Assembly (NCBI GenBank): GCA_964488395.1
Contig: CAZAVT010000002.1
Location: forward strand, 1-30,970
Source: an uncultured Burkholderiaceae bacterium
GTDB taxonomy: Bacteria > Pseudomonadota > Gammaproteobacteria > Burkholderiales > Burkholderiaceae_E
Reading direction: 5' to 3'
DNA: 30,970 bases
In this document: one piece after another, positions 2,902 to 17,342 of the stretch
Layout of the letters: each line of letters begins with the position of its first letter
Numbering within the stretch: position 1 is the first letter of the stretch
Notes under the pieces: generated by a model
Databases searched by the model: none
What the model was told of the DNA's origin: nothing
Seen by the model: only the letters and a program-made list of their open reading frames with translations
Translations under genes and position numbers: made by a program

Positions 2902-3729
2902 GTGAGGACCGAGCGTAGTCGCGTCGCGGGTGCCGACGCGGCGCAAGAGGCGATTCCGCTTTACCTGCGCGTTGCGTCGGCGCTGCGCGGTCAGATCTTC
3001 TCCGGTCAGTGGTCTGTCGGAGAACGGTTGCCGCCCTTTGAGCGCTTGGCGACGGACTATGGCGTCGCGCTCAACACGATCCGCAAGGCCATCGAATTGC
3101 TGGCCGACGAGGGACTGGTCACGGCCGCACGCGGTCTCGGGACGCGTGTGCGAGCGCATGCCCCGGCTCACGAAGGACCGTCCTTGCGGGCGGCCATCTC
3201 CGACCCGCTCGAGCTCGCTACGGGTATCACGATCGACGTGCTCGAGTCGAAGACTGTCGATCAGCTCGCCGCCGAGCTCATGGAGCCCTACCGGCTCGCG
3301 CCGCGCTATCACCGCACTCTGAAGACCCACAGCCTGTCGGGGACGGCCTTTGCGTTGCTGGATATCTACGTCGATGCGGTGCTCTACGCGCGCTTTCCGA
3401 GACTCGCCGAGCGACGGCTCAAGCTCTCGCGGCTGCTGCGCGACCACGGCGATACCGAGATCATAGAGTCGCGCGAGGAGCTGACCGTGCAGCACGCAAC
3501 CCCGGCCATTGCGCAGCAGCTGCAATACCCCATCGCAGCACCGATCGTGCGGCTGCGGCGCTGGCGCTTGGCTGCGGATCGACGAGTCGTCTATGCCTGT
3601 GTCGCGAATTACCGCAGCGATCGGTTCGTTTTCGACATCACGCGCAGCCACCAGGGGGCCGATCACTTCGGTCAGCACATCATTCCGTCAGCGGGCTCAA
3701 CAACCCCGGATTCAACGAGGCGATCATGA
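2902..3729 (+). CDS. GntR family transcriptional regulator, HutC/UTRA subfamily
   Basis: PLYLRVASALRGQI...GERLP...LATDYGVALNTIRKAIELLADEGLV...GLGTRV wHTH, followed by a UTRA-like domain ending YRSDRF. GTG start is uncertain. Stop overlaps the next ATG (ATGA). Confidence 0.88.
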   Translation: MRTERSRVAGADAAQEAIPLYLRVASALRGQIFSGQWSVGERLPPFERLATDYGVALNTIRKAIELLADEGLVTAARGLGTRVRAHAPAHEGPSLRAAISDPLELATGITIDVLESKTVDQLAAELMEPYRLAPRYHRTLKTHSLSGTAFALLDIYVDAVLYARFPRLAERRLKLSRLLRDHGDTEIIESREELTVQHATPAIAQQLQYPIAAPIVRLRRWRLAADRRVVYACVANYRSDRFVFDITRSHQGADHFGQHIIPSAGSTTPDSTRRS

Positions 3730-4715
3730 TCGTGAACATCCGTCGTATCGAACTGCAGGCACTCGCCTTTGTTGCCGCGATCGCATCAACCGCTTTCGCC
3801 CCGACCATGGCTCAGTCACCGTCCTACCCCACGCGGGCGATCAAGCTGATTGTCCCCTTCGCACCGGGCAGCGCGGCCGATACGACCTCACGCTTCATCG
3901 CGACGCGGCTCGCTGATCGGGTCCGGCAGCCGGTCGTGGTCGAGAATCGGCCCGGCGCGGGTGCGGCGCTCGGGGTGAACGCACTCAAGACAGCAGCTGC
4001 TGACGGCTACACCATCGGCAACCTGGTATCGGCCAATGCCGCTCAGCCGTGGTTGAGCAAGGATGTCCCCTTTGACATCCGGACCGACTTCGCACCGATC
4101 GCGCTGATGTATTCGGGGCCCATGGTCATGACGGTGGCGAGCGGTTTTTCGGCGGGCAATGTTGCCGAGTTCCTGACCATGGCACGCAACAATCCAGGCC
4201 GATTGGCCGTCGGCTCAATCGGTATCGGCACGGCGACGCACCTGGCCGCCGAGTTATTGCGCCAGTCCGCCGGCATCGAGATCACGATCGTTCCCTTCAA
4301 GAGCGCGCCTGATCTGCATCGCGCGGCTGCAGCTGGCGAGATTGCGGCCTCCATCGACACCTATGCCTCGCCCAAGCCCCTGATCGATGGCGGACGACTG
4401 AGGGTCCTGGCCGTGACGAGTGCCCGCCGGATGGACCTGTTGCCCCAGGCACCGGCGATTGGCGAGACTCTGGCCGGCTTTGACATCGAATCGTGGACGG
4501 GCCTGGGTGCACCTCGTGATACGCCCGCGTCGGTCCTGGAGACCCTCGCCGCGCATCTGCAAGTGATCATGCGTACCCCAGAGTGGCTGGCGCTCCTCGA
4601 GAGCAATGGAGTTGCCGCTGGGAGCGGTACGCCCGCGCAATTCGGCGAGCGGATTACCCGCGACTACGAGAAATTCGGTCGTATCGCGCAGGGCGCGGGA
4701 CTCAAGCCTCAGTAA
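3726..4715 (+). CDS. Bug/TctC substrate-binding protein (Bug 2)
   Basis: YPTRAIKLIVPFAPGSAAD, VENRPGAG, DGYT and FGRIAQGAGLKPQ, with an N-terminal signal peptide. Confidence 0.95.
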   Translation: MIVNIRRIELQALAFVAAIASTAFAPTMAQSPSYPTRAIKLIVPFAPGSAADTTSRFIATRLADRVRQPVVVENRPGAGAALGVNALKTAAADGYTIGNLVSANAAQPWLSKDVPFDIRTDFAPIALMYSGPMVMTVASGFSAGNVAEFLTMARNNPGRLAVGSIGIGTATHLAAELLRQSAGIEITIVPFKSAPDLHRAAAAGEIAASIDTYASPKPLIDGGRLRVLAVTSARRMDLLPQAPAIGETLAGFDIESWTGLGAPRDTPASVLETLAAHLQVIMRTPEWLALLESNGVAAGSGTPAQFGERITRDYEKFGRIAQGAGLKPQ

Positions 4716-5491
4716 AGCGCCGTCACATCGGCACATTCGAGACGCGCTGCGCGGGCAAGCAGCGACAGGTCCGAGCCGACCAGCACGAAACGTACCCCCT
4801 GTTCGAGTCGACGACGCATCAATGCATGCTCGCGGATACCCCCCATCCCCGCAGCAAGTCGATGTGCCTGGCAGGCGGCGACGACAAGCCGATAGGCCTC
4901 GTCGACAAGCGGGTGGCCGAACTGCCCGTGAATGCCCAGACTTGCACAGAGATCATTGGTCCCGATCAAAAGGATATCGATTCCGGGCACCGCCGCGATC
5001 TCGGCAGCTGACTGGACCCCTGCGCTGGTTTCGATCATCGCGACGATCAAGGTGGCGGGGTTAAGCGTATTGACCAGGCGATCGATAGGTGGCGCCTGAT
5101 AACCAAACTGCGGCATGTTGCTTGAGATCGAGCGTCGTCCGACCGGCGGATACTTGAGACGGCTCACGATCTCGCGGGCCTCATCGGCGGACTCGACCTG
5201 GGGACAGACGATGCCGGTGGCACCGCCGTCGAGCAAGCGGGTGGCAAGTGCATACTCGCCGCGCGGGATTCGCACGAGCGGCGCGACACCGCTATCGAGC
5301 GACGCGGTTGCGATCTGCGAGGCCGTATCGATCGAAAATGGTCCGTGCTCGAGATCAATGAACAGCCAGTGATACCCAGCCGCCTGGGCCAGACGAACGA
5401 TCTCCGGGGTGCGCACGATCCGCACGCCCAGTCCGATGCACAGTTCATTGGCTGCCAGCCGTCGCGCGATGGGATGATCGACTGCATACAT
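4709..5491 (-). CDS. HpcH/HpaI family class II pyruvate aldolase
   Basis: FIDLEHG, LVRIP, LDGGATGIVCPQV, KYPPVGRRS, AMIET and IGTNDL. GGAG RBS upstream. 3' end overlaps Bug 2 by 7 nt (convergent). Confidence 0.92.
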   Translation of the reverse strand: MYAVDHPIARRLAANELCIGLGVRIVRTPEIVRLAQAAGYHWLFIDLEHGPFSIDTASQIATASLDSGVAPLVRIPRGEYALATRLLDGGATGIVCPQVESADEAREIVSRLKYPPVGRRSISSNMPQFGYQAPPIDRLVNTLNPATLIVAMIETSAGVQSAAEIAAVPGIDILLIGTNDLCASLGIHGQFGHPLVDEAYRLVVAACQAHRLAAGMGGIREHALMRRRLEQGVRFVLVGSDLSLLARAARLECADVTALY

Positions 5492-5603
5492 CGGAGGCTC
5501 CTATTGGAGAGAAGGTCAGACGGGGATGCGGACAAGCGCTTGAGGGCTGTGGGGCCCCATGTTAGATTGGATCGTCGATTGTTGACCACCCGGCGACCCT
5601 ACG

Positions 5604-6242
5604 ATGACCGCACCGCTTTCGGTTGATGCCGAGCGCGATCTGCTCCTCGTCATTGACGTACAGAACGACTTCTGCCCGGGCGGAGCGCTGGCAGTGCCTG
5701 ACGGCGACGCGGTGGTGCCGCTGATCAATCGCCTGTCGAAGCAGTTCCGGCAAGCCGTGCTCACTCAGGACTGGCATCCGCCTGGACACCACTCCTTTGC
5801 CAGCAGCCAGCCAGGCCGTGCGCCGTTTTCGACTCTGACGCTTCCTTACGGCGAACAGACGCTTTGGCCAGACCACTGCGTACAGGCGAGTGCCGGTGCG
5901 CAATTCCACCCCAAACTCGACGTGGGCTGCGCGCAACTGATCCTGCGCAAGGGCTTTCGGGCCGACATCGACTCCTACTCGGCCTTTTTCGAGAATGACC
6001 GCGAGACCGCCACCGGCTTGGCAGGCTACCTGCAGGAGCGGGGCATCAATCGGCTGGTGCTCGCCGGTCTGGCCACCGACTACTGCGTTGCTTATTCGGC
6101 GATCGATGCGGCCCGACTGGGCTTTGCAGTGAGCGTGGTCCTGCCCGCCTGCCGGGCGATCGACCTGGATGGCTCGCTCGCGGCGGCGCTCGCGCAGATG
6201 CAGTCGGCGGGTGTTCGCCTTGTGGCTATGCCCTCAAGCTGA
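5604..6242 (+). CDS. pncA: Nicotinamidase/pyrazinamidase
   Basis: VIDVQNDFCPGGALAV, TQDWHP..H.SF, LWPDHCVQ, RKG...DSYSAF and GLATDYCV. Intact Asp-Lys-Cys triad and metal ligands. Confidence 0.95.
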   Translation: MTAPLSVDAERDLLLVIDVQNDFCPGGALAVPDGDAVVPLINRLSKQFRQAVLTQDWHPPGHHSFASSQPGRAPFSTLTLPYGEQTLWPDHCVQASAGAQFHPKLDVGCAQLILRKGFRADIDSYSAFFENDRETATGLAGYLQERGINRLVLAGLATDYCVAYSAIDAARLGFAVSVVLPACRAIDLDGSLAAALAQMQSAGVRLVAMPSS

Positions 6243-6265
6243 GGGCTGGACCCACCCTCCGTCCC

Positions 6266-7003
6266 TTAAGTCGGGGGCCACTCCTCGATCGCCCGGATGA
6301 GCTCGGCTGCCCAAACCCGATAGGCTGCAGGGCCCGGGTGAAACCCGTCCTCGGCCATCGCATCGGGCTGATCGAGCGTGGGCAAGCCAACCCAGGCACA
6401 CCGATCACCATAGTTCCACGTCGAAAGCGTGCGCCGCAAGGCAAGGTTGAATTCGCAGGCGCGCAGCCCCAGCAATCCCCGCAGGGGCTGCGGTAGGGCT
6501 GTGAAGCGGCCGATCGGCGGTACGGCCGAAATCAGGACCCGCTTCACCTCATGGCGACCGCAGAGCAGCTCGATGAGCTCACGCTGCGCCTGCAGCCATT
6601 GCCCGACGCGCAGCGCGCCCGTCACGTCGTTCACGCCCAGGGACAGCACCGCGACATCGAAGGGCTGGGACGGCTCTAACTGGAGCCGCGCGATCAGCTT
6701 GCGCGTGTCATAGCCCGTTCTCGCGATCAACTGCCAGTCCAGGTCGAATCGATGGGCAAGCGCCTCCGTCAGCAGGCCCGCCAGTGCCTCGCGCTGGTCG
6801 AGCACGCCAACTCCGGCCGCGGCCGAGTCGCCGGCAATCAACAGCCGAAGGCGCGGACGCATCGAGCCTTCGCCGACTCGACCGCTTCGCGCCCCCTGCG
6901 GCTCGGGCAATCGTGGCGTCACGGCCCTTGTGTGGCGGGCCTGAAGCAAGAGAAGCGGAGCGAGCAGTGCCGACAGAAGCGCCAGTGGCCAACCCCCGAT
7001 CAA
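6266..7003 (-). CDS. SGNH/GDSL hydrolase family protein
   Basis: Block I IAGDSAAAGVG, block II ARTG, block III LGVNDV and block V EDGFHPG, after a hydrophobic N-terminus. Start placed at TTG 7003, which overlaps the upstream stop (TTGA). The ORF-track GTG at 7045 is an alternative. Confidence 0.88.
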   Translation of the reverse strand: MIGGWPLALLSALLAPLLLLQARHTRAVTPRLPEPQGARSGRVGEGSMRPRLRLLIAGDSAAAGVGVLDQREALAGLLTEALAHRFDLDWQLIARTGYDTRKLIARLQLEPSQPFDVAVLSLGVNDVTGALRVGQWLQAQRELIELLCGRHEVKRVLISAVPPIGRFTALPQPLRGLLGLRACEFNLALRRTLSTWNYGDRCAWVGLPTLDQPDAMAEDGFHPGPAAYRVWAAELIRAIEEWPPT

Positions 7004-7371
7004 CGCTTGCGCTCGCAGTCCGCATTGCCAAAACGGGCCATGCACAACTGAGACGCACAGGCGTTCATCATCGCATTTCGGCCGTTCTCATTGACATCGA
7101 CGATGGCCGTTTCCTGGTAGGGCCGGTACTCGGTGCGCATCACCTGCTTGCAGTTGCTCTGGGTGACGGCGCCCTGCTGAACGGTCGTGCACTGGGTCTC
7201 GCCGGTGGGCACCTGAACCGGACGGGTCCGCGTGACGAGCTGCGCCACGTTGACGACCGGATATTGTTGGTAGGCCTGGGGAGCGCATTCATTCTTGGCG
7301 CCCAGGTACTCGGGGGTAGCACAGGCAGCGAGCAACAGACTCGCCAGTGCAATGGTCAGGGGCAATCTCAT
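7000..7371 (-). CDS. Small Cys-rich lipoprotein of unknown function (123 aa)
   Basis: MRLPLTIALASLLLAAC signal peptide II with lipobox LAAC, GAGGAC RBS before ATG 7371, and six further Cys. Confidence 0.8.
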   Translation of the reverse strand: MRLPLTIALASLLLAACATPEYLGAKNECAPQAYQQYPVVNVAQLVTRTRPVQVPTGETQCTTVQQGAVTQSNCKQVMRTEYRPYQETAIVDVNENGRNAMMNACASQLCMARFGNADCERKR

Positions 7372-7420
7372 CGGGTCCTCGGTCGTCAATCGAGCAGTCG
7401 CTCGCGGATTGGGGAAGGCG

Positions 7421-8398
7421 TCACGCCATGGGTAAAGCGTCAATCAACTCGATCATCCTGCGACGCATCGCCTCATCGGGGAGAGCGCCACGAAGCGGTC
7501 CGAGATTGTCGGTCATATTGGCGGCCCGACTGGTGGCGGGCGTGATCGCCGTGACCACTGGGTGGCTCGCCACGAACTTCAGGAAAAACTGCGCCCAGGT
7601 ATTCGCGCCGATCTCCGCCGCCCAGTCCGGGAGCGGGCGCGAACCCACCCGCTTCCAGAGTCGAGTGCGTCCAAAAGGCGCATAAACCAGCACCGCAATC
7701 CCGCGATCGCGGGCGAGCGGCAGGATGGTCTTCTCGGCGTCGCGTCCATCGACTGCGTAGTCGGTGCCGATGAAGTCGACCACCTCGCTCCTCATGGCGG
7801 CAATCAGGTCCGCGTACTGATTCTCGAAGGTGGTGGTGATCCCGATATAACGCACCCGCCCCCGCTCCTTGTATTCACGCAGGATGGGCAACTGGGTGCG
7901 GATATCGCCCATGTTGTGAACCTGGATCAGATCGATCACCGGGCGCCCCACCCGCTTGAACGATGCTTCGATCTGGGCGCGCGCCTGCTGCGGATCAGCC
8001 GCGCCGCCACCGCGTGGCGCGACGTTGACCTTGGTAGCCCAGAAAAGCCGATCAGCCACGCCCAGTTCCTGAACCACGCGGCCCGCTGCCTCTTCCGAGG
8101 CGCCGTACTGCGGTGCCGTATCAAAGACTCGTCCGCCACCTGCAATCAAACTCTCGAAGACACCCTTGAGGGCCGCAAAATCCTCATTGCGTGCGACCTG
8201 GGCAAAGGTCGCGGAACTACCCAGCCCGATGATGGGCAGCCGCTCACCGGACTTTGGAATCGCCCGCGTGATCAATTCGCCCGCCGTCGCCGTCGGCGAC
8301 GAGGCAGGCGTGCTCGCTCGCAGGGCCGCAGGGGCAATCCCTGCGAGGCCGGCAGTGGCCATGGTCGCCTGCAGCAGAGTTCGGCGGGAAAAGCTCAT
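7421..8398 (-). CDS. Aldo-keto reductase with twin-arginine (Tat) signal peptide
   Basis: MSFSRRTLL...AALRA signal, IGLGS, and catalytic tetrad in FDTAPQYG (D,Y), ATKV (K) and IQVHN (H). Confidence 0.93.
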   Translation of the reverse strand: MSFSRRTLLQATMATAGLAGIAPAALRASTPASSPTATAGELITRAIPKSGERLPIIGLGSSATFAQVARNEDFAALKGVFESLIAGGGRVFDTAPQYGASEEAAGRVVQELGVADRLFWATKVNVAPRGGGAADPQQARAQIEASFKRVGRPVIDLIQVHNMGDIRTQLPILREYKERGRVRYIGITTTFENQYADLIAAMRSEVVDFIGTDYAVDGRDAEKTILPLARDRGIAVLVYAPFGRTRLWKRVGSRPLPDWAAEIGANTWAQFFLKFVASHPVVTAITPATSRAANMTDNLGPLRGALPDEAMRRRMIELIDALPMA

Positions 8399-9738
8399 GA
8401 GTGTGCTCCTTGTTCGTGAAGGTCAACCGGCTCAATGACGGCTCGCCGCTGGTGCAAGCGCCCCAGCCATAAACCAAGCGCAGCCCACACGAGCGCCAAG
8501 GGCAGCGCAAGACTGATCAATGCAGCCAGTCCCATGCCGAGTCGGCCCAGCAGGCCCTCGGTCTGCGCGCCAATGACATCGCCTGCGCGATAGATGAAGG
8601 TGTCGATGAACGCCTTGGCCTTGTAGCGTTCGGACCGCGACACCGTGGTGAAGAGGGTCTCGCGCGCCGGGCGCATGATCCCCCGCTGCACCGCCTTGAA
8701 AAGCGCTTCGAAGGCGATCAGGACCGCCAGCGAACCCACCAGCGCAAGGCCCACAAAACCAAGTGCCGTGATCATTGGCAAGAGCGCCAGCGTCACCGCG
8801 AGCCCAGCCCGCTTCATCAGGTGGCCAGCGACCAGCGCCTGCAGGACCAAGGTGGTGATCTGCGTGATCAGATCGATCTGCGCGAAAACGGTGGTGCGCA
8901 GATCAAGGTTCGTGCCGAGCGCCGCCACCATCTGCAGACGGGTGAAATACAGGAAGGTCGAAATGACCGCAAGGATCAGTACGTAAGCGCAGATCCCCAG
9001 GAGAAACGGCGACGACAGCACCGCCCTGAACCCCTCCCAGGCACTGCCACCGATCGGTGCCCGGTCGGGATGGTCGGGCTCCGAGGCGGTGGGTGTCGCT
9101 CGCTCGGGTTCGGGATGTGCCGGCTCGGAATCGCTACGAATCCGCATCAGCGCAGCTGCCGCGGCAAGTCCCAGCACAAGAAAGCCGGCTGCGATTGGCA
9201 GTAACGTGGCGGTCCCCAGCGGCTTGGCCAGCACGCTGGCAAGCCAGGGGCCGAAAATGGCTCCCAGGGTTCCACCGACCGCGATCGCCCCGAACAGCCG
9301 CCGACTTTGCTCCTCAGAAAATCGATCGGTCATCAGCGCCCAGAACAGCATCGTCGCGAACAGATTGAACACGCTGAACCAGACGTAAAACACCTGACCG
9401 CTCGCCGCGCCCGCCCCCGCAGGCGCAAAGGTGAGAAGCGCATAAAAAGCGAGCAAGCCGGCGACGAAAAAGAGGTAGGTGGCCGACACGAAGACCATGC
9501 GCCGCAAGCGGCTGACCAGCCAGCCAAACACCGGATTGACAGCGAGCGTCACCAACAAGGTTCCGAAAAAGAGCCAGCGGATCGCCTCGATCCCGCGTTG
9601 CATGCCGAGCGCTTCTCGTGCAGGACGCAACAACATCAGAGCGGTGAGCACGCAGAAAAAGAAGCAGGCCCCAAGCAATAGCGGCGCAAGCTCGCCACGG
9701 CGAACATTGGTCAAGCGCTGAACGAGGCTCGGCAACAT
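8395..9738 (-). CDS. NTT/TLC (ATP:ADP antiporter, AAA family) MFS-fold transporter
   Basis: Multiple hydrophobic segments with family motifs LLRPAREALG, FYVWFSVFNLF..MLFW, RLFG.IA.GGTLGAI.GP and RPARETLFT.V...ERYKAKAFIDTF.YR.GD. Stop overlaps the AKR ATG. Confidence 0.88.
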   Translation of the reverse strand: MLPSLVQRLTNVRRGELAPLLLGACFFFCVLTALMLLRPAREALGMQRGIEAIRWLFFGTLLVTLAVNPVFGWLVSRLRRMVFVSATYLFFVAGLLAFYALLTFAPAGAGAASGQVFYVWFSVFNLFATMLFWALMTDRFSEEQSRRLFGAIAVGGTLGAIFGPWLASVLAKPLGTATLLPIAAGFLVLGLAAAAALMRIRSDSEPAHPEPERATPTASEPDHPDRAPIGGSAWEGFRAVLSSPFLLGICAYVLILAVISTFLYFTRLQMVAALGTNLDLRTTVFAQIDLITQITTLVLQALVAGHLMKRAGLAVTLALLPMITALGFVGLALVGSLAVLIAFEALFKAVQRGIMRPARETLFTTVSRSERYKAKAFIDTFIYRAGDVIGAQTEGLLGRLGMGLAALISLALPLALVWAALGLWLGRLHQRRAVIEPVDLHEQGAHS

Positions 9739-9748
9739 GTTAGAGCTC

Positions 9749-11686
9749 TCACGCGGGAAGTGCGGGGCGATTCGGCAAGCTCAGGCAAAACACGATCTCC
9801 GATCCCCTGATCTCGCAGGTCAATTCACCACCCAGCAGTCGGGCGGCATTTTGAGACAACCACAGTCCCAGGCCAGCACCCCGACGGCTGCCCGCATGGG
9901 GATCCCGCCAGTATTTGTCGAAGACCCGTGCCGGGTCAACCGCCGCATGTGCCGACAGACGATTGGCGATTGTGAACCGTACCCCGCCGTCGGACGATTG
10001 GAGGGGCTCCGCATCGATCGCGATCGACGAGCCGCGTTCCCGGTAACGATCAGCATTCTCGACCAGGTTGGACAGGATCAGTTCGACATAGGTCCAGTCC
10101 TGGGTGAGCGCCAGGTCTGGACTCACGCGAATCGACAGATCGGAGCACCCGATTCGCTCGATGAGCTCATCCAGGCGTGAGGCAAAGTGCTCTGAACTCG
10201 ATTCAGGCCGGAAGTCCTGCTCGAAGCGCCTGGCCGCCTGGACCTTGTCGAGCACCGCCGAGGCCGAACGCAGGGCCGAGCCCGCGCGAGCGAGCGAGGT
10301 CGCGATTTCGGGGTCCTCGTTGAAGCGTTGCCGCGGCCGCTCAGGAGCCGAGCCCTGTGTTGCTGGCGCCTGGGCGCTCGCATAGTCGCCGCCTTGCAAG
10401 CGTCGAATCACGAGACTCGCAATGCCCAACGCATTGCGCAGTTCATGGGTGAGCATCGCGAGAAATCGATCGTATTCCTGATTCTGCTCGGCGGTCAGCG
10501 ACAGCTCGCGACGGGCCTGCTCGGAGATCAAACTGAGCCGCTGCCGCTCGAGCAGATCGAGACGGCCCTGGCGGGCGATCACCACGGCAAGAGTGACCGC
10601 AATGATCAGGCCGTGCCCCATCGGCAAATGGATGGCCAATTCCCCTCCGATGCCGCCGCCGAGCACCGGTAGCATCGTGAGCGACAACACGACGAGGAGC
10701 AGTGCGTAAGCCCGCAAGAGGGGTTGGTGATCCGTCACAGCGCGCCGCGAGGAAAAATAGGCGGCCGCCGCCACAGTGACCGACGCCGACATCACCAACC
10801 AGGCGTTTGCCATCAGGGGTAAGCGGGGCTCGATCAGGGCAAGAAGCACAAGGTCGAGTACTGCCCAGACAATGCAGCCATCAAGGAATCGAACAGCCCA
10901 TCGGCCGATGGGGTAGCGAGACAGGAACAGCCGGTGAAAGAGCGAACCCGCCAGGGTCGACAGCAAGACGAAAAGGCTGGTCCAGAGGTCGCTCGTGCCG
11001 CCGGGGAAGACGAAACGGGCAAGACCAGTGATCCCCAATCCCATGCCGGTCAGCGAAAAGAGGTAGATCGAAAACATCACGATGGCCATATCACGGCGGA
11101 TCCAGGCTGTGATCGCAGACCAGAGGGTGAGGAACGCCGTGAGGCCGAAATAGACGCCGAACACGAGGTCCTCAAAGGTCGCCGTACGCTCGCTGTCGGA
11201 TTCGGTGCGCACCTCGGGATAGATCGCCATGGTGCTGCTCGTGCGGACTCGAAGATAGATCGGTCCACCATTGCGGCCATCGAACGAGAGACTGAAGGCA
11301 GTGTCGCTGAAGGCCTTGTCGCCCTTGGGATATCGATCCCCCATCTGGTGGTACGACCAGCCGCCAAGGCCGTCGGGCCAATAAGCCTCGATCTGATCGA
11401 GATAGACCGGTCGGATCCGCAAGCGCAGCGTCTCAGCCGGTGCATGGGGAGCCAGGTCGATGCGAACCCACACCGCCGACGCGGTGAAGCCCAGGCTCAC
11501 ATAGTCGGAAACGGTTCGCCAATCATCACGCTGGCGAACGGCGTCGATAGAGCGTTCGCTTCCCGACTCCTGAAGGATCGACAGGCGTTCGATCCAGTTG
11601 TGGGCAAGGGCCGATGGCGCCGCCCCCCAGGCCAACATGACGAGCAGGGCGACCAAACAACCACGCATCCAAGCCGTGCAGGCCAT
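9749..11686 (-). CDS. Sensor histidine kinase with 7TMR-DISMED2 and 7TM-DISM input domains
   Basis: Periplasmic LGFTASAVWVRI...LRIRPVYLDQIEAY...YLRVRTSSTM, a 7-TM region, H-box FLAMLTHELRN, N-box ILSNLVENADRY and G2 GAGLGLWL. Start is ATG 11686, or TTG 11836 overlapping the benE stop. Confidence 0.88.
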   Translation of the reverse strand: MACTAWMRGCLVALLVMLAWGAAPSALAHNWIERLSILQESGSERSIDAVRQRDDWRTVSDYVSLGFTASAVWVRIDLAPHAPAETLRLRIRPVYLDQIEAYWPDGLGGWSYHQMGDRYPKGDKAFSDTAFSLSFDGRNGGPIYLRVRTSSTMAIYPEVRTESDSERTATFEDLVFGVYFGLTAFLTLWSAITAWIRRDMAIVMFSIYLFSLTGMGLGITGLARFVFPGGTSDLWTSLFVLLSTLAGSLFHRLFLSRYPIGRWAVRFLDGCIVWAVLDLVLLALIEPRLPLMANAWLVMSASVTVAAAAYFSSRRAVTDHQPLLRAYALLLVVLSLTMLPVLGGGIGGELAIHLPMGHGLIIAVTLAVVIARQGRLDLLERQRLSLISEQARRELSLTAEQNQEYDRFLAMLTHELRNALGIASLVIRRLQGGDYASAQAPATQGSAPERPRQRFNEDPEIATSLARAGSALRSASAVLDKVQAARRFEQDFRPESSSEHFASRLDELIERIGCSDLSIRVSPDLALTQDWTYVELILSNLVENADRYRERGSSIAIDAEPLQSSDGGVRFTIANRLSAHAAVDPARVFDKYWRDPHAGSRRGAGLGLWLSQNAARLLGGELTCEIRGSEIVFCLSLPNRPALPA

Positions 11687-11832
11687 CGTGAACCGATCCA
11701 GGCTGGAAAGCTTCTCCGGTATTGCGCCCACGCGAACCGACCTATTTCGTCCTCCAAACGCGTCAGTGTAAAGGGAGTCGGCCGCCCGCGTCCTGCCGGG
11801 CCAGGATAGGCGAGAAGCCCGCAGCAGGGGGC

Positions 11833-12987
11833 TCAACGCCGAAGCAGGCGTCGACTGATCGCACTCGCTGCGACGCCGGCCACCAGCCCCCAGAACGCGC
11901 TGCCAATCCCGAAGAGCGTGAGTCCCGCCGCCGTGCAGAGAAACGTGAGCAACGCCGCATCGCGTTCAGCCGGCTCCTCGAAGGCGCTGACCAAACTGCC
12001 CGAGAGCGTCCCCAGGAGGGCGATTCCCGCCATCGCGGCCAGGAATGCCGGCGGCAGCGCCGCGAAGGCGGTGACGACCGTCAAACCCAGGAGCCCGGTC
12101 ACCGCATAAAAGCCACCTGCCCAGACGGCTGCCCGATAACGCCGCTCCTTGACCGGGTCAGCCTCGGGCGACATGCAGATCGCCGCGGTGATGGCCGCAA
12201 GGTTGTATGCAAATCCGCCAAACGGGGCGAGCACGAGCCCGACAAACCCGGTCACGGCAATCGGCGGCGAAGCGGGCGTGTCATAGCCATTGGCGCGCAG
12301 CACGGCAAGCCCCGGGACATTCTGCGACGCCATGGTGACCAAAAAAAGGGGCAGACCGATACCGATGAGATGGCTCCCGGTGAAGGTCGGCGTGGTCCAG
12401 ATCGGCCGTGCGACGTCGAACACGATCACACTGCTGCGGACTTCGCCCTGGAAGGCACAGAACAGGATACCGATGGCAAGACTCGCGAGCGCCGCAAAAT
12501 TTGGCTGCCAGCGCCGACCCAGGACCCAAACCCCCAGCATCAGCAGCGCCAGCCCCAGCGCATCGGCGAGCGTCGAAAAGAGCTGCAGCCCGAACCTCAG
12601 CAACACGCCGGCGAGCATCGCCGCCGCAACGGCTCGGGGCACCCAGCGAAGCAGAACCTCGATCCATCCAAGGAGCCCGAACAGCGTGAGCAGGAGCGAC
12701 GAAAACAGGAACACCCCGATCGCATCGCTGAGCGCTACGCCGGGCAGCGCCGTTGCAAGGAGCGCCGCGCCCGCAGTGGACCAGGCCGTGAGCACGGGCG
12801 CGCGGTAGTACCAGGAGAGACCGATCGACGTCACAGCCATCCCGATCCCGAGCGCCCACAACCAGGAGCCCACTTGAGCGATTGAAGCGCCCGCCGCGTT
12901 CGCCGCTTGAACGACGATCACCGCGGAGCTGGCATAGCCCACCAGCACCGCGATGAAGCCCGCGCTGACATGTGCCCCGCGAATCAT
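11833..12987 (-). CDS. benE: BenE family benzoate/H+ symporter
   Basis: SAGFIAVLVGYASS, APVLTAWSTAGAALL, LPLFLVTMASQNVPG.AVLRANGY, NLAAITAAIC, ALLTFLCTAAG and IGSAFWG. GAGGA RBS before ATG 12987. Confidence 0.93.
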   Translation of the reverse strand: MIRGAHVSAGFIAVLVGYASSAVIVVQAANAAGASIAQVGSWLWALGIGMAVTSIGLSWYYRAPVLTAWSTAGAALLATALPGVALSDAIGVFLFSSLLLTLFGLLGWIEVLLRWVPRAVAAAMLAGVLLRFGLQLFSTLADALGLALLMLGVWVLGRRWQPNFAALASLAIGILFCAFQGEVRSSVIVFDVARPIWTTPTFTGSHLIGIGLPLFLVTMASQNVPGLAVLRANGYDTPASPPIAVTGFVGLVLAPFGGFAYNLAAITAAICMSPEADPVKERRYRAAVWAGGFYAVTGLLGLTVVTAFAALPPAFLAAMAGIALLGTLSGSLVSAFEEPAERDAALLTFLCTAAGLTLFGIGSAFWGLVAGVAASAISRRLLRR

Positions 12988-12998
12988 GGGCGAGGTCC

Positions 12999-14048
12999 TC
13001 ACTCCATCTTGATCCCAGTGGCGATCAGCCGTGCCCACTTATCGGCTTCGGCGCGCATGAGCTGCGCAAACTCGGCGGGTGTCTTGCTGTAAGTTGGGTC
13101 GGCGCCCCAAGTCTTCCAGCGCTCGAGGACCTCATCGCTTCGCATGATCTGCACGATTTCGCGATGAACTCGCGCGATGATCGCTTCGGACGTCCCGGCC
13201 GGCGCGACGAATCCGTACCAAGGGGTGACCTCGTAACCCCTGAGACCGCCCTCGGCCACGCTGGGCAACTCGGGCGCACTGGCGGTGCGTTCCAGGCTGG
13301 TCACGCCGATCGCCTTCACCTTGCCGCTTGCCGCGCGGGGCAACGCGATCGGAGCCCCGGCAAACACGAAATGCACCCGACCAGCAGTGAGGTCATTGAG
13401 CGCCTCGTTGATGCCCCGATACGGCACGTGCACGGACTGGAGTCCAGCCATCTGATTGAAGAGGGCCGCCGCCAGGTGGGTCAGACTGCCATTGCCTGAA
13501 GTCCCGTAATTGACCGCTCCAGGCCGGTTGGCGATGTACGCGGCAAGCTCGCGTGAACTCGCAACGGGCAGCTCGGGCGAGGTCAACAGCACCAGCGGAA
13601 AACTGCCAACCAGCGAGACCGGCGCGAAATCACGCAAGTTGTCCTCGGGCGACCGACTGCCCTGTCCCGAAGCAATGAGCATCGATGAGGCCGCGAGCAG
13701 AAAGGTGTAGCCGTCCGATGGCGATTTGGCCACCAGATTGGCGCCGATCGTGAGGCTCGCACCAGGCTTGTTGTCGATCACGACGGCCTGCCCGAGCGGG
13801 CCGGCAAGCTTGGTTGCGACAAAGCGGCCCAGCAGATCGGCCGGCCCGCCCGGTGTATACGGAATCACCAAGCGAATCGCCCGATCCGGGTAGGTGGACT
13901 GGCCGAGCGCGCAAAGCGGCGCGGTCAGCGTCAGGCCGGTCGCGAGTGAGGCGGCCAGGAGGCCTGCCCTGCAGGACGCGCCAAAGGGCGGGCGGGCCCA
14001 GTCCCTAACCCGCACCTTCAGAGCCGCGCGAGGGAGTCGATCCTTCAT
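12999..14048 (-). CDS. Bug/TctC substrate-binding protein (Bug 3)
   Basis: YPDRAIRLVIPYTPGGPAD, IDNKPGA, DGYT, HVPYRG and KWARLI. Confidence 0.94.
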   Translation of the reverse strand: MKDRLPRAALKVRVRDWARPPFGASCRAGLLAASLATGLTLTAPLCALGQSTYPDRAIRLVIPYTPGGPADLLGRFVATKLAGPLGQAVVIDNKPGASLTIGANLVAKSPSDGYTFLLAASSMLIASGQGSRSPEDNLRDFAPVSLVGSFPLVLLTSPELPVASSRELAAYIANRPGAVNYGTSGNGSLTHLAAALFNQMAGLQSVHVPYRGINEALNDLTAGRVHFVFAGAPIALPRAASGKVKAIGVTSLERTASAPELPSVAEGGLRGYEVTPWYGFVAPAGTSEAIIARVHREIVQIMRSDEVLERWKTWGADPTYSKTPAEFAQLMRAEADKWARLIATGIKME

Positions 14049-14059
14049 ACCCACCCCCT

Positions 14060-14887
14060 TCAGTCGGCCGTCGAAAAAAGCCGCGACACGCCGTAAAGCT
14101 CAGTCAATTCCTTGACTCGATACCGCGGCGGCATCGCATGATAGTAGCCTCGGGTACAGCGGCTGATGCCTAACTGCCGACGGAGGTCGGCGAGTACCTC
14201 GGCCGTCTTGAGGGTCGCGGCCACCCCATCGAGGATCGGCACATCGTCCACCCTCGAAATGCCCGCCCGCTGCAGCATCACGCTCATAGGCGCCTCGCCT
14301 GGAATGATCACGTCAGCCCCCTGCGCGATCAGCGCGCGGGCATTTTCAAAAAAGATCTCGAGGATGTCCTGCGGCGCCTGCCGGGTCGGCAAGACCGAGG
14401 AGGACGGGAACCCCACATAGCGCAGCCCCGCGCAGCGGCCCGTGAGGCCGTGAATCGCGATATTGCTCTCGAGCATTGGGATCATCTCGCGGATGAAGAG
14501 CAGCACGCCAAAGCGGGTGCCAAGGTGGACCGCCATGTTCATGGCGCATTCGCCGTAACCCACGACCGGAATCGAGACCAGGCTCTTGATCTCGCGTAGG
14601 CCGGGTTCGGGTAAGGTCGCGAGCGCAAAAGCATCGTAGCCCTGTTCTTCAGCAAGGATCGCCGCATAGGCGAACTGATGCGAGTGAATGGACTGAAAGT
14701 AGGCATAACCGACATCAGTGCTCGGGCCATCACCCTTGCGGTGGCCGTGAGTGCCCGGATGCGTACCATGTACGACCACCTCGGTGTCGTCACGAACCAC
14801 CTTCCGAATGTGCTCGCGCAGCGACGCGTCGTACTCAGGCACGCGGGCCAAGGTGGTAAAGCTCTGATGCCAGATGCGGGTCTTCAT
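14060..14887 (-). CDS. Asp/Glu/hydantoin racemase superfamily protein lacking both canonical catalytic Cys
   Basis: GYDAFALATLPEPGL...IPVVGYGE, FGVL, GADVIIPGEAPM and VPILDGVAATLKTAE align with the hydantoin racemase pattern (ACxGDPG, GCAGM, PVIDGV). Confidence 0.82.
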   Translation of the reverse strand: MKTRIWHQSFTTLARVPEYDASLREHIRKVVRDDTEVVVHGTHPGTHGHRKGDGPSTDVGYAYFQSIHSHQFAYAAILAEEQGYDAFALATLPEPGLREIKSLVSIPVVGYGECAMNMAVHLGTRFGVLLFIREMIPMLESNIAIHGLTGRCAGLRYVGFPSSSVLPTRQAPQDILEIFFENARALIAQGADVIIPGEAPMSVMLQRAGISRVDDVPILDGVAATLKTAEVLADLRRQLGISRCTRGYYHAMPPRYRVKELTELYGVSRLFSTAD

Positions 14888-14916
14888 GAAAATTCCTCAG
14901 GGTCTGCAAAAGAGAT

Positions 14917-16311
14917 TCAGGCGAGTCGTCGCAGGCCACGAGACAGTAGGCCGATGCGGGCCTGCTCGGTCGCTGGAACGGGAACCGGGACCTCAGCCGC
15001 CGGCAGCAATCGCTCGACCACCGACGCGCCGTCGTGCTCAGCACCCGCAAATGCAAGGCAGTCGGCCGCCTTGCGGCGCAATTCCTCATCGGTGAGAGGG
15101 TCGGGCGCATCGCCGTGGGCGACCTGAACACGGCGCGCAAGGCGCCGACCGTCCCTCAGATACACCGTCACCTCGCTCCAGCGCGGCAGAACCGGACCCT
15201 CGGCTTCGGTGAGCGAGATGATCCGCATCAGGGCCATCACCTCAGCGCGTCCGAAGGCCTGCGGCCGATAGGATTCAAGATCCACCCGCCCGTCGATCAA
15301 GCCCAAGGCCAGTGTGTAGGGCAGGCTGAACTTGCCCTGCAGGCTGTCGAGCGGCTCGCCCCCGATGAGCGCCTCGCGGCCGCGCGCGCTCGTGAGGACT
15401 TCGATGCGCTCGACCTCTCCCACCGCGAACCCGTCATCGACGCGCAGTGCGAGGAGTGCGTCCAGTGCGCGGTGGATCGCGTAGCAACACGGATATTTCT
15501 TGAGATCGATACCGACCCGCTCGATCGCAAGCGGTCGTTCGCCCAAGCGCGCGAGCGCCGGTGCCAGGTCTTCGCCCGCGGCATACAAACGGGTGAATCC
15601 ATAGGGGCCATCGATCGCGCCGGGCGCTGATGTAAAGCCCAAGGCGGCCAGCCGGACGCTCCTCACCGCCGCCGCGGCACAGATGCCGGCCTGAAACGAC
15701 TTGGCCATCGCGCCAAAGTTTTCCCGCGTGCCCGCTGCCTGTGCGACCGCCAGACCCAGCGCATGAATCGTCTGCGCCTCATCAAGATCGAGCAGTACCG
15801 CGCAACCGAGCGTCACCCCGATCACGCCCAGAGCCGAGGTCGAGTGCCAGCCCCGGCTGTAGTGATCGAGCGCGAGCACGGGCGCCATCGCAGCCATGAC
15901 CTCGTAGCCGGCAAGCCAGGCCTGCGGGTAGCGATGCGACAGCGTCGGTTGCGCGCAGGCGAGCGCCTGCAGCGCCGGCACCAAGGTCGCGCTGACATGC
16001 GCACGCATTGGCGTCAGCACATCGTCATAGTCGAACACATGGGCGGCCAAGGCGTTGAACCAGGCGGCCTCCTCGACAGGCAGGCGCGTCCCGTCGCCCC
16101 AGATGTGGGCCGCGCCATGACCGGCCACCTCGTCGAGGTGTCGGCGCGCGATCGCAACCACTGGATCATCGAGTGCCGCGACCGCGACCGCCCAGGTATC
16201 GAGCGCCGCCCGCCAGGCAAAGCGCCGTTCGATTGCACTCGGTGTCAGCCGGCCAAAACGCCGGGCAAACGCGGCCAGTTGGCTTGATGCACCCTCACCC
16301 GCGCGGGACAT
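14917..16311 (-). CDS. MmgE/PrpD family protein (IDS-epimerase / cis-aconitate-decarboxylase-like branch)
   Basis: NALAAHVFDYDD..H, GYEV, HYSRGWHST, KSFQAG, KKYPCC and KFSLPY. ATG 16311 lies 8 nt after the Bug 4 stop. Confidence 0.92.
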   Translation of the reverse strand: MSRAGEGASSQLAAFARRFGRLTPSAIERRFAWRAALDTWAVAVAALDDPVVAIARRHLDEVAGHGAAHIWGDGTRLPVEEAAWFNALAAHVFDYDDVLTPMRAHVSATLVPALQALACAQPTLSHRYPQAWLAGYEVMAAMAPVLALDHYSRGWHSTSALGVIGVTLGCAVLLDLDEAQTIHALGLAVAQAAGTRENFGAMAKSFQAGICAAAAVRSVRLAALGFTSAPGAIDGPYGFTRLYAAGEDLAPALARLGERPLAIERVGIDLKKYPCCYAIHRALDALLALRVDDGFAVGEVERIEVLTSARGREALIGGEPLDSLQGKFSLPYTLALGLIDGRVDLESYRPQAFGRAEVMALMRIISLTEAEGPVLPRWSEVTVYLRDGRRLARRVQVAHGDAPDPLTDEELRRKAADCLAFAGAEHDGASVVERLLPAAEVPVPVPATEQARIGLLSRGLRRLA

Positions 16312-16319
16312 CGTTTCGC

Positions 16320-17342
16320 TCACTCGGCCTTGATGCCAGCCGTTGCGATCACGCCCGCCCATCGGTCGTGCTCGCTGCGGATATAGTCGGCGAGCGCAGC
16401 GGGTGTGGCGCTGGTCATCGGCTCCATGCCCATCGAATCGAGTCGCTTGACGAAGTCGGCCGAATGGACCGCCGCCACGACCGCCTCGTGAAGCCGCCGG
16501 GCGACAGCCTCGGGCATCCTCGCGGGCCCAAGGAGCGCATACCAATTGCCCAGCGTCATGCCCGGCAAGCCCTGTTCGGCCATGGTCGGCACCTCCGGCA
16601 TGCCGGGATGTCGGGTCGGGCTGGTGATCGCAATGGCCCGAAGCCTCCCCTCGCGTACCGGCGCGCTCAAGGCCGCATAGTCAACCGCCATGGCGTGAAC
16701 CCGACCGGCGACCAGATCGGTGATGCCGGGAGCGGCGCCCTTGTAGGGCACGAACCGGACATCGACGCCAGCCACCGTTTTGAACAGTTCGAACACGAGA
16801 CGGGTCGAACCGCCCGTGCCAACGGTCACAAAGTCGAGCTGGCCTGGACGCTCGCGGGCCTGCGCGACGAGCTCGGTGACGCTCCCGACCTTGAGTCCTG
16901 GGCCCACCGCAAACAGGACCGGGCTACTCGCCACAGTGCTGATGCCTGTGAAATCGGTGAGCGGACTGTAGGGCACCTTGGCGTAAGTCAGCGCATTCAG
17001 CACCAGCGACGACAGGCCACCGGCAAGCAGCGTGTAACCATCGGCGGGCGCTTTGGCGACTAGATCCGCCGCGATGATGGCATTGGCCCCCGGTCGGTTC
17101 TCGACCAGCATCTGGACTTTTAGCGCTTCGCCCAGGCTCGCCGCGAGCTGGCGCGCCAGGATATCGTTGGCACCCCCCGGTGGATAACCGACGATCAGGC
17201 GAATCGGGCGGTTGGGATAGCTTTCAGCGAGCGCTGCTGGCGTGGCAAAAACCGCCAAGACCGACGCGAGGACGACAAGCAGTGCGCGTTGCAGCGCGCC
17301 CGGCCATGCGGCGTGCAGGAAGCGATCGATGGGAACGGGCAT
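16320..17342 (-). CDS. Bug/TctC substrate-binding protein (Bug 4)
   Basis: YPNRPIRLIVGYPPGGAND, VENRPGAN, DGYTLL, VPYKG and RWAGVIATAGIKAE. GGAG RBS before ATG 17342. Confidence 0.95.
   Translation of the reverse strand: MPVPIDRFLHAAWPGALQRALLVVLASVLAVFATPAALAESYPNRPIRLIVGYPPGGANDILARQLAASLGEALKVQMLVENRPGANAIIAADLVAKAPADGYTLLAGGLSSLVLNALTYAKVPYSPLTDFTGISTVASSPVLFAVGPGLKVGSVTELVAQARERPGQLDFVTVGTGGSTRLVFELFKTVAGVDVRFVPYKGAAPGITDLVAGRVHAMAVDYAALSAPVREGRLRAIAITSPTRHPGMPEVPTMAEQGLPGMTLGNWYALLGPARMPEAVARRLHEAVVAAVHSADFVKRLDSMGMEPMTSATPAALADYIRSEHDRWAGVIATAGIKAE

Follow-up and report, generated by a model that had tools for sequence, protein, structure and literature searches.

Nucleotide antiporters of the NTT/TLC type (TC 2.A.12; structures 9j3n/9j3o for Chlamydia pneumoniae NTT1 and 9j3j/9j3l/9j3m for Arabidopsis NTT1) include NTT4 of Protochlamydia, a NAD+/ADP carrier that transports NAD+ and NADH (PMC3831814). 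NTT-type genes are also present in free-living prokaryotes, where their roles are unknown and where horizontal transfer has taken place among the hosts (Major, Embley and Williams 2017, PMC5381601). The latter study describes HEAT and cNBD fusions; the words oxidoreductase and periplasm do not occur in its text. Here, we describe a divergent relative of these antiporters, encoded in tandem with an aldo-keto reductase (AKR) that carries a predicted signal for twin-arginine translocation (Tat). The two genes are located in a 30,970-nucleotide stretch of DNA (the window) from an uncultured Burkholderiaceae bacterium (assembly GCA_964488395.1, contig CAZAVT010000002.1, positions 1 to 30,970).

To our knowledge, the textbook periplasm is free of NAD(P)H, and the redox enzymes known from this compartment use quinones, cytochromes, pyrroloquinoline quinone, flavins, metals or, in the case of glucose-fructose oxidoreductase (GFOR), permanently bound NADP. 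GFOR turns over by a ping-pong reaction of two substrates that regenerates the bound cofactor, and it is not known to have a dedicated carrier. In Zymomonas mobilis, this Tat-exported periplasmic enzyme receives NADP prior to transport (PMC13673990, citing Halbig 1999). Unlike GFOR, which has the Gfo/Idh/MocA fold, the enzyme studied here is of the AKR fold. A literature search for a module of carrier and exported enzyme, for Tat-exported AKRs, or for periplasmic supply or export of NAD(P)H returned no relevant paper.

Conservation of the carrier/enzyme pair

The sequence-only reading of this locus mentioned similar pairs in other proteobacteria and named their frequency as a check. The pairing proved to be conserved well beyond the proteobacteria. 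In 41 related genomes, 21 substantial matches to the carrier were found, and an AKR gene followed directly 3' on the same strand in 20 of them. The genome of one relative contained, alongside the orthologous pair, a second carrier/AKR pair with 42% identity. A sample of the phylum (an even selection of 401 genomes) yielded 25 carriers of the subfamily in 21 genomes. An AKR adjoined 17 of these carriers, often in the reversed order (AKR, then carrier), and in one genus a third gene, coding for a signal-bearing F420_oxidored-type NADP oxidoreductase, was located between the two. Five carriers of this sample adjoined a short-chain dehydrogenase (SDR) of about 350 amino acids, in which a signal peptide precedes a Rossmann domain that begins at around residue 60; some of these signals read TRR(E/D)ALK and others are Sec-like. 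One more carrier adjoined an epimerase-type protein with a Tat signal. Altogether, 23 of the 25 carriers had a neighbouring exported NAD(P) enzyme.

A scan of species genomes with a family pattern revealed at least 599 loci, the best 80 of which were examined. They span Beta-, Gamma-, and Alphaproteobacteria, Gemmatimonadota, Acidobacteriota, Verrucomicrobiota, Planctomycetota, Rokubacteriota, Myxococcota, and Fibrobacterota, i.e. about eight phyla overall. An exported NAD(P) enzyme was encoded directly adjacent to the carrier and on the same strand in 59 of these loci. The partner was an AKR in 36 loci, a PF01370 epimerase-type protein with a Tat signal in 18, an SDR in three, and an F420_oxidored-type protein and a signal-bearing D-2-hydroxyacid dehydrogenase in one locus each. 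The gene order carrier, AKR, F420_oxidored-type protein was found in eight of the 80 loci. The RR motif was present in nearly all partners; 'no signal' scores assigned to epimerase-type proteins were artefacts of a crude scorer, and the N-termini of these proteins read TRR(D/K/E)F. Judged from these predicted proteins, the partner changes its fold but not its cofactor class or its export.

The recurrence of this adjacency across genomes, also after a flip of gene order, is beyond chance. Chance adjacency was rejected since the two genes have stayed together through inversion of their order, in paralogues, and through inter-phylum transfer. A larger conserved operon was considered as well and rejected. 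Namely, in all-against-all clustering, first of 18 and later of 20 divergent loci, no neighbour other than the carrier and the enzyme recurred, and only within-genus synteny and shadow open reading frames were left.

Carriers sharing 64–70% identity with that from the window were encoded in metagenome-assembled genomes of Longimicrobium, Thermoanaerobaculia, Acidobacteria, and Rokubacteriota (loci L092, L101, L104, L112, L120, and L131). They are about as close to it as many of the copies in Burkholderiales. Such identities between phyla suggest a recent transfer of the module or else binning errors.

Neither an F420_oxidored-type partner nor a signal-bearing SDR partner was detectable in the genome containing the window (72% complete), which leaves the AKR as the sole visible client of the carrier in this organism. 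Locus L153 contains a gene for a DAO-type FAD oxidoreductase with a Tat signal (4916–6052, plus strand) directly after the carrier and a gene for a Tat-signal epimerase-type protein upstream of it; because of the former, the client set may extend to flavoenzymes. In loci L026 (6316–10278) and L027 (2291–5011), the carrier gene stands beside a set coding for a likely periplasmic aldehyde oxidoreductase, composed of a cytochrome c, a large subunit with a Tat signal, and a 2Fe-2S subunit. The set in L026 is headed by a signal-bearing F420_oxidored-type gene, recognized by Pfam; the other genes in both loci were identified by their N-terminal sequences only.

Relationship of the carrier to nucleotide antiporters

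The label 'NTT' given to the carrier in the sequence-only reading was not accepted as a family assignment. The only Pfam family matched was MFS_1 (2.8e-15), i.e. that of the major facilitator superfamily (MFS). The match to DUF7269 (Pfam/NCBIfam) was below threshold, and NCBIfam gave nothing useful apart from a weak match to a D-galactonate transporter model. No match between the carrier and the TLC model (PF03219) was obtained with hmmscan even at E ≤ 10, and the carrier is outside the curated TLC family. Annotations of close relatives are in conflict: 'AAA family ATP:ADP antiporter' is used by JGI, and 'MFS transporter' or 'NTP/NDP exchange transporter' by NCBI.

The part of the label that stood is kinship, as revealed by a family profile and by the predicted fold. 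The carrier family is large, with at least 1010 clusters at 50% identity (E ≤ 1e-30). A single-sequence phmmer search of the carrier against the Protein Data Bank (PDB) gave no match. A profile built from 68 diverse family members matched CpNTT1 of Chlamydia pneumoniae (9j3n; E 5.7e-25) and AtNTT1 of Arabidopsis (9j3j; E 9.8e-18), and the alignment to these solved NTT1 proteins was near full length (profile positions 5–104 and 116–437). The next-best MFS protein was OxlT, with an E-value of 2e-5. The AlphaFold2 (AF2) model of the carrier (predicted local distance difference test, pLDDT, 91.2; predicted template modelling score, pTM, 0.89) displayed the 12-helix MFS fold. In a Foldseek search with this model, AtNTT1 and CpNTT1 ranked first (E 9e-11 to 1e-9, TM 0.73–0.75), and NorA, SPNS2, and VMAT2 ranked below them. 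Motifs common to the carrier family and the NTTs in the alignment of hidden Markov models, compared at motif level, included LRxx(K/R), FW..(D/E), (A)KR, RSPY, (K/R)E, and KxKxxID...R. On the evidence of profile and predicted structure, the carrier is a true but divergent branch of the NTT/AAA nucleotide-antiporter superfamily.

The features shared with the NTT/TLC proteins are the 12-helix MFS fold and the charged motifs, including most of the conserved Arg and Lys residues. The differences are also clear. In fold alignments, the carrier is only 15–17% identical to solved NTTs. It is shorter than NTT1, with 447 amino acids versus 586–610 in the solved chains, and has residues conserved only within its own clade, i.e. 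R80, Y88, W120, N125, Y264, D289, Q300, and D387. It also occurs in free-living bacteria, where it is encoded beside exported dehydrogenases.

Conserved residues of the carrier

An alignment of 126 carriers labelled by their partner (60 with AKR, 18 with epimerase-type protein, and 10 with SDR) revealed about 24 polar or charged positions with a conservation of 90% or more, most of them invariant, across AKR, epimerase-type, and SDR partners. These are E16, R38, R41, R80, Y88, W120, N125, W133, D138, R147, S243, T261, Y264, D289, Q300, R359, E360, Y372, K373, K375, D379, T380, R384, and D387. Eight of them are Arg or Lys. The conservation of residues 372–380 is partly by construction, since loci L091–L170 were retrieved by a pattern covering this region; the other positions, and the remaining loci from searched genomes, are free of this bias. 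The signature stays constant although the five enzyme chemistries are unrelated, and this points to the features common to the partners, namely the nicotinamide cofactor and the location.

Two divergent subfamilies were compared with this signature. Many of the signature residues differ in a subfamily with 26% identity to the carrier, and a few differ in a subfamily with 31–34% identity. The carriers of the 26%-identity subfamily (loci L049, L050, L052, and L053) come from genomes of about 46–53% GC, and their genes stand directly before genes for mannose-1-phosphate guanylyltransferase-, amidase-, and MsbA exporter-like proteins, as judged by N-terminal sequences only. This context hints at a function of that branch connected with nucleotide sugars or the envelope. 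The 31–34%-identity subfamily (L040–L047) has another conserved context, in which a gene for a GMC-type flavoenzyme is divergent to the carrier gene or near to it, and genes for thioesterase-like and small membrane proteins are also present; these were again recognized by N-terminal sequences only.

The exported aldo-keto reductase

The assignment of the enzyme to the AKRs is firm. It matched Pfam Aldo_ket_red (PF00248) with 86.8 bits (cut-off, 24 bits; E 1.7e-24), and the best sequence match in the PDB had an E-value of 1.9e-15. The AF2 model is an (alpha/beta)8 TIM barrel (pLDDT 91.2), and all top Foldseek matches were AKRs, including DepB and members of AKR11, 13, and 14, at 20–26% identity. 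A full catalytic tetrad had been claimed for this protein, and residues D93, Y98, K123, and H161 indeed align with the tetrad of solved AKRs. None of the four residues varies among the 30 carrier-linked AKRs compared, and they are kept in 33–34 of 34 unlinked ones.

The enzyme shares with AKR11, AKR13, AKR14, and DepB (1pyf, 3v0s, 4aub, and 8hwn) the barrel, the D-Y-K-H tetrad, and apparently the general layout of the cofactor site, the majority of its residues being retained. It differs from them in its low identity, the presence of a Tat signal followed by a linker, and two substitutions. The alignment shows that G58, G60, T188, P241, F242, P287, T289, and N298 of the cofactor site are kept; in the clade to which this AKR belongs, the usual Gln contacting the nicotinamide is replaced by Gly (G211), and an Asn typical of the family by Tyr (Y239). 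Positions 243, 244, 294, and 297 in the cofactor loop differ between carrier-linked and unlinked AKRs, a difference confounded by phylogeny; since the two groups form separate clades, this comparison is uninformative. Membership of a numbered AKR family requires more than 40% identity. Being 20–26% identical to the nearest of the solved AKRs, with which it was compared, the enzyme would represent a new family.

The N-terminus of the AKR reads M-S-F-S-R-R-T-L-L-Q and continues into a hydrophobic stretch (A11–A25) and a cleavage-type site (A22-P23-A24). The SRRTLL twin-arginine signal noted in the sequence-only reading was therefore confirmed as S4-R5-R6-T7-L8-L9, with the h-region and the AxA-type site following it and the RR motif kept in AKR orthologues and in distant family members. 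Downstream of the A-P-A site is a linker rich in Pro, Ser, and Thr; residues 11–40 were modelled with low confidence and look like a flexible linker. The AKR was not reported by the Pfam TAT_signal model at E ≤ 0.01; the same model does report one partner enzyme at another locus. TatC is encoded in the genome (223 bits; G000:C308).

Two kinds of deviating signals were observed in relatives of this enzyme. Paralogous AKRs in the genus from which the window comes (L009, L010, L012–L014, and L016) have the signal (L/V)-T-R-S-(D/E)-F-(L/I)-R, in which the second Arg is replaced by Ser while the surrounding residues remain Tat-like; by sequence, this R-S signal may be a natural single-Arg variant of the Tat signal. 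Two AKRs of the same family lack a signal peptide and look cytoplasmic (L058, 5104–5976; L060, 3462–4340). No carrier was found in either of these two genomes.

Possible function of the carrier

The sequence-only reading suggested that the carrier supplies or recycles a nicotinamide cofactor for the periplasmic enzyme. This idea can be developed into the following scheme. The AKR would reach the periplasm through Tat after folding in the cytoplasm, where it would probably bind NAD(P)(H). The carrier would then exchange a nicotinamide dinucleotide across the inner membrane, in the simplest case reduced cofactor outwards and oxidised cofactor inwards, in a manner resembling the exchange of ATP and ADP by NTT1 and of NAD+ and ADP by NTT4. 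Under this model, and in contrast to the host-to-parasite import by NTTs, the carrier would be of use by transporting outwards. Such an exchange would allow the periplasmic enzyme to turn over more than once; its substrate would most likely be a carbonyl compound met in the periplasm. The part of the idea that gained support is the link to the cofactor, through the five exported families of NAD(P) folds and the constant residues of the carrier. The mechanism is one we infer, the TLC cut-off was not reached, and Tat can export enzymes that are already loaded. On balance, we consider the chances that the carrier exchanges NAD(P)H and NAD(P)+ in the service of periplasmic enzymes to be even.

Several observations weigh against cofactor exchange. 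A free periplasmic pool of dinucleotides could leak through porins or be degraded. The partners nearly always use Tat and not Sec, which fits export of enzymes already loaded with cofactor; an enzyme of this kind could turn over by ping-pong with no external pool. In a genome-wide search, the TLC model scored only 9.7 and 7 bits versus a 21-bit cut-off; both weak matches fall in the carrier gene, are collinear with the model, and are the sole ones in the genome. Since the carrier is below this cut-off, its substrate is not transferable by family membership. The 31–34%-identity subfamily adjoins a cytoplasmic GMC flavoenzyme and no exported NAD(P) enzyme. Of the 80 loci, 21 have no adjacent client, the neighbours being porin, LysE, kinase, transglycosylase, CBS, HAD, and DUF488 proteins. 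Finally, the phylum sample contains 45 genomes with an AKR, 26 of which do not possess a carrier (family profile, E ≤ 1e-10), and the AKRs in these 26 genomes nearly all keep the RR motif.

The weight of the last point is tempered because the AKRs of carrier-less genomes form a separate clade. Clade A of the AKR tree, which contains the enzyme from the window, has 28 members, all from carrier-bearing genomes. The carrier is adjacent to 25 of them; the remaining three are additional copies, and their genomes encode the carrier elsewhere. The sister clade B comprises 31 unlinked and five linked members. A universal requirement of periplasmic AKRs for the carrier was rejected in view of the 26 sampled genomes with a Tat-AKR and no carrier.

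It is unlikely, in our view, that the carrier instead moves the substrate or product of the AKR, importing an alcohol, acid or sugar or exporting a precursor, with the cofactor travelling with the enzyme through Tat. An operon of an enzyme and a transporter is the common case, carbonyls and alcohols are substrates of AKRs and SDRs alike, some partners could share a substrate class, and many Tat-AKRs manage without a carrier. The near-universal use of Tat would also fit cofactor-loaded export of the kind described in PMC13673990. However, the five partner families are unrelated in fold and chemistry, and yet the polar residues of the carrier are invariant. Some loci hold two different enzymes and one carrier. 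The nearest homologues of the carrier, by both sequence and fold, are nucleotide antiporters rather than sugar or acid permeases. Alternatively, the carrier might move a different solute of the nucleotide type (ATP/ADP, a mononucleotide or a nucleotide sugar, for example) and be linked to the dehydrogenases only indirectly, by co-regulation or by a pathway in common. The substrates of the solved relatives are ATP/ADP, the PF01370 partners include nucleotide-sugar enzymes, the 26%-identity subfamily is encoded directly before a mannose-1-phosphate guanylyltransferase-like gene (by its N-terminal sequence), and the roles of NTTs in free-living bacteria are unknown (PMC5381601). We nonetheless hold this alternative to be even less probable: AKRs, classical SDRs, F420_oxidored-type proteins, and 2-hydroxyacid dehydrogenases have no known nucleotide-sugar or ATP chemistry, and the 26%-identity subfamily differs at so many signature residues that it says little about the clade studied here.

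The tight coupling of the two genes and the conservation of a membrane protein beside an AKR also recall the Kv-beta AKRs of potassium channels, and the AKR could by analogy be a docking or regulatory redox-sensing subunit of the carrier instead of a bulk catalyst. The replacement of the AKR by four other enzyme folds and the strict retention of the catalytic tetrad make such a role very improbable.

If the carrier does exchange nicotinamide cofactors, the consequences would reach beyond this locus. Many free-living Gram-negative bacteria would keep a working periplasmic pool of NAD(P)H, fed by an NTT-derived antiporter and powering at least five families of Tat-exported enzymes. We put this broader proposal forward tentatively, judging its chances to be somewhat short of even. 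The carrier/AKR pair described here would be the minimal form of such a pyridine-nucleotide redox compartment, which has not been described previously. If true, it would account for the turnover of the AKR, SDR, and Rossmann enzymes with predicted Tat export, which number in the hundreds, and would provide a first function for NTT-type carriers of free-living bacteria, the question left open by PMC5381601. Whole-cell biocatalysis would likewise gain a natural means of delivering cofactors.

Organization of the locus

The carrier and the AKR are encoded by a two-gene, translationally coupled unit. The ATGA overlap of the two genes, claimed earlier, was verified by direct reading: the plus strand reads TCAT, i.e. 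ATGA on the coding strand, and the carrier's stop codon overlaps the AKR's start codon (Table 1). The ribosome-binding site of the AKR precedes its ATG by 7 nt and falls within the 3' end of the carrier gene. An overlap of 4 nt is by itself ordinary in operons. A scan of positions 6900–12200 for promoters and terminators gave sites no more numerous than those in shuffled controls.

Table 1. Coordinates of the carrier/AKR gene pair and the adjoining histidine kinase gene in the window
Feature	Position	Strand	Details and basis
Carrier gene	8395..9738	minus	447 aa, ATG start (open reading frame and translation)
Aldo-keto reductase (AKR) gene	7421..8398	minus	325 aa (open reading frame and translation; Pfam Aldo_ket_red)
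Predicted Tat signal peptide, coding region	8327..8398	minus	AKR residues 1–24 (translation)
ATGA overlap, carrier TGA stop / AKR ATG start	8395..8398	minus	direct sequence reading
AAGGAG ribosome-binding site (Shine-Dalgarno) for AKR	8406..8411	minus	direct sequence reading
7TMR-DISM sensor histidine kinase	9749..11836	minus	Pfam 7TMR-DISMED2, 7TMR-DISM_7TM, HATPase_c; context only

Downstream of the AKR, at a distance of 49 nt, a Cys-rich lipoprotein of 123 amino acids is encoded (7000–7371, minus strand). Besides several Cys residues, it contains an L-A-A-C lipobox. It had no match in Pfam and was not found adjoining the pair in other genomes. A GDSL lipase is also encoded downstream of the AKR and is not conserved beside the pair elsewhere.

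The gene for the sensor histidine kinase ends only 10 nt 5' of the carrier ATG and is, for this reason, probably co-transcribed with the carrier. The kinase is a local arrangement outside the conserved module; of the other loci, only L002, from a relative of the same genus, has the C-terminal fragment of a kinase 5' of its carrier. The open reading frames scanned around the kinase (3726–16545) included no recognizable response regulator. The start of the kinase gene is overlapped by 4 nt by a gene for a BenE-type transporter (kinase/BenE region 9749–13038, minus strand).

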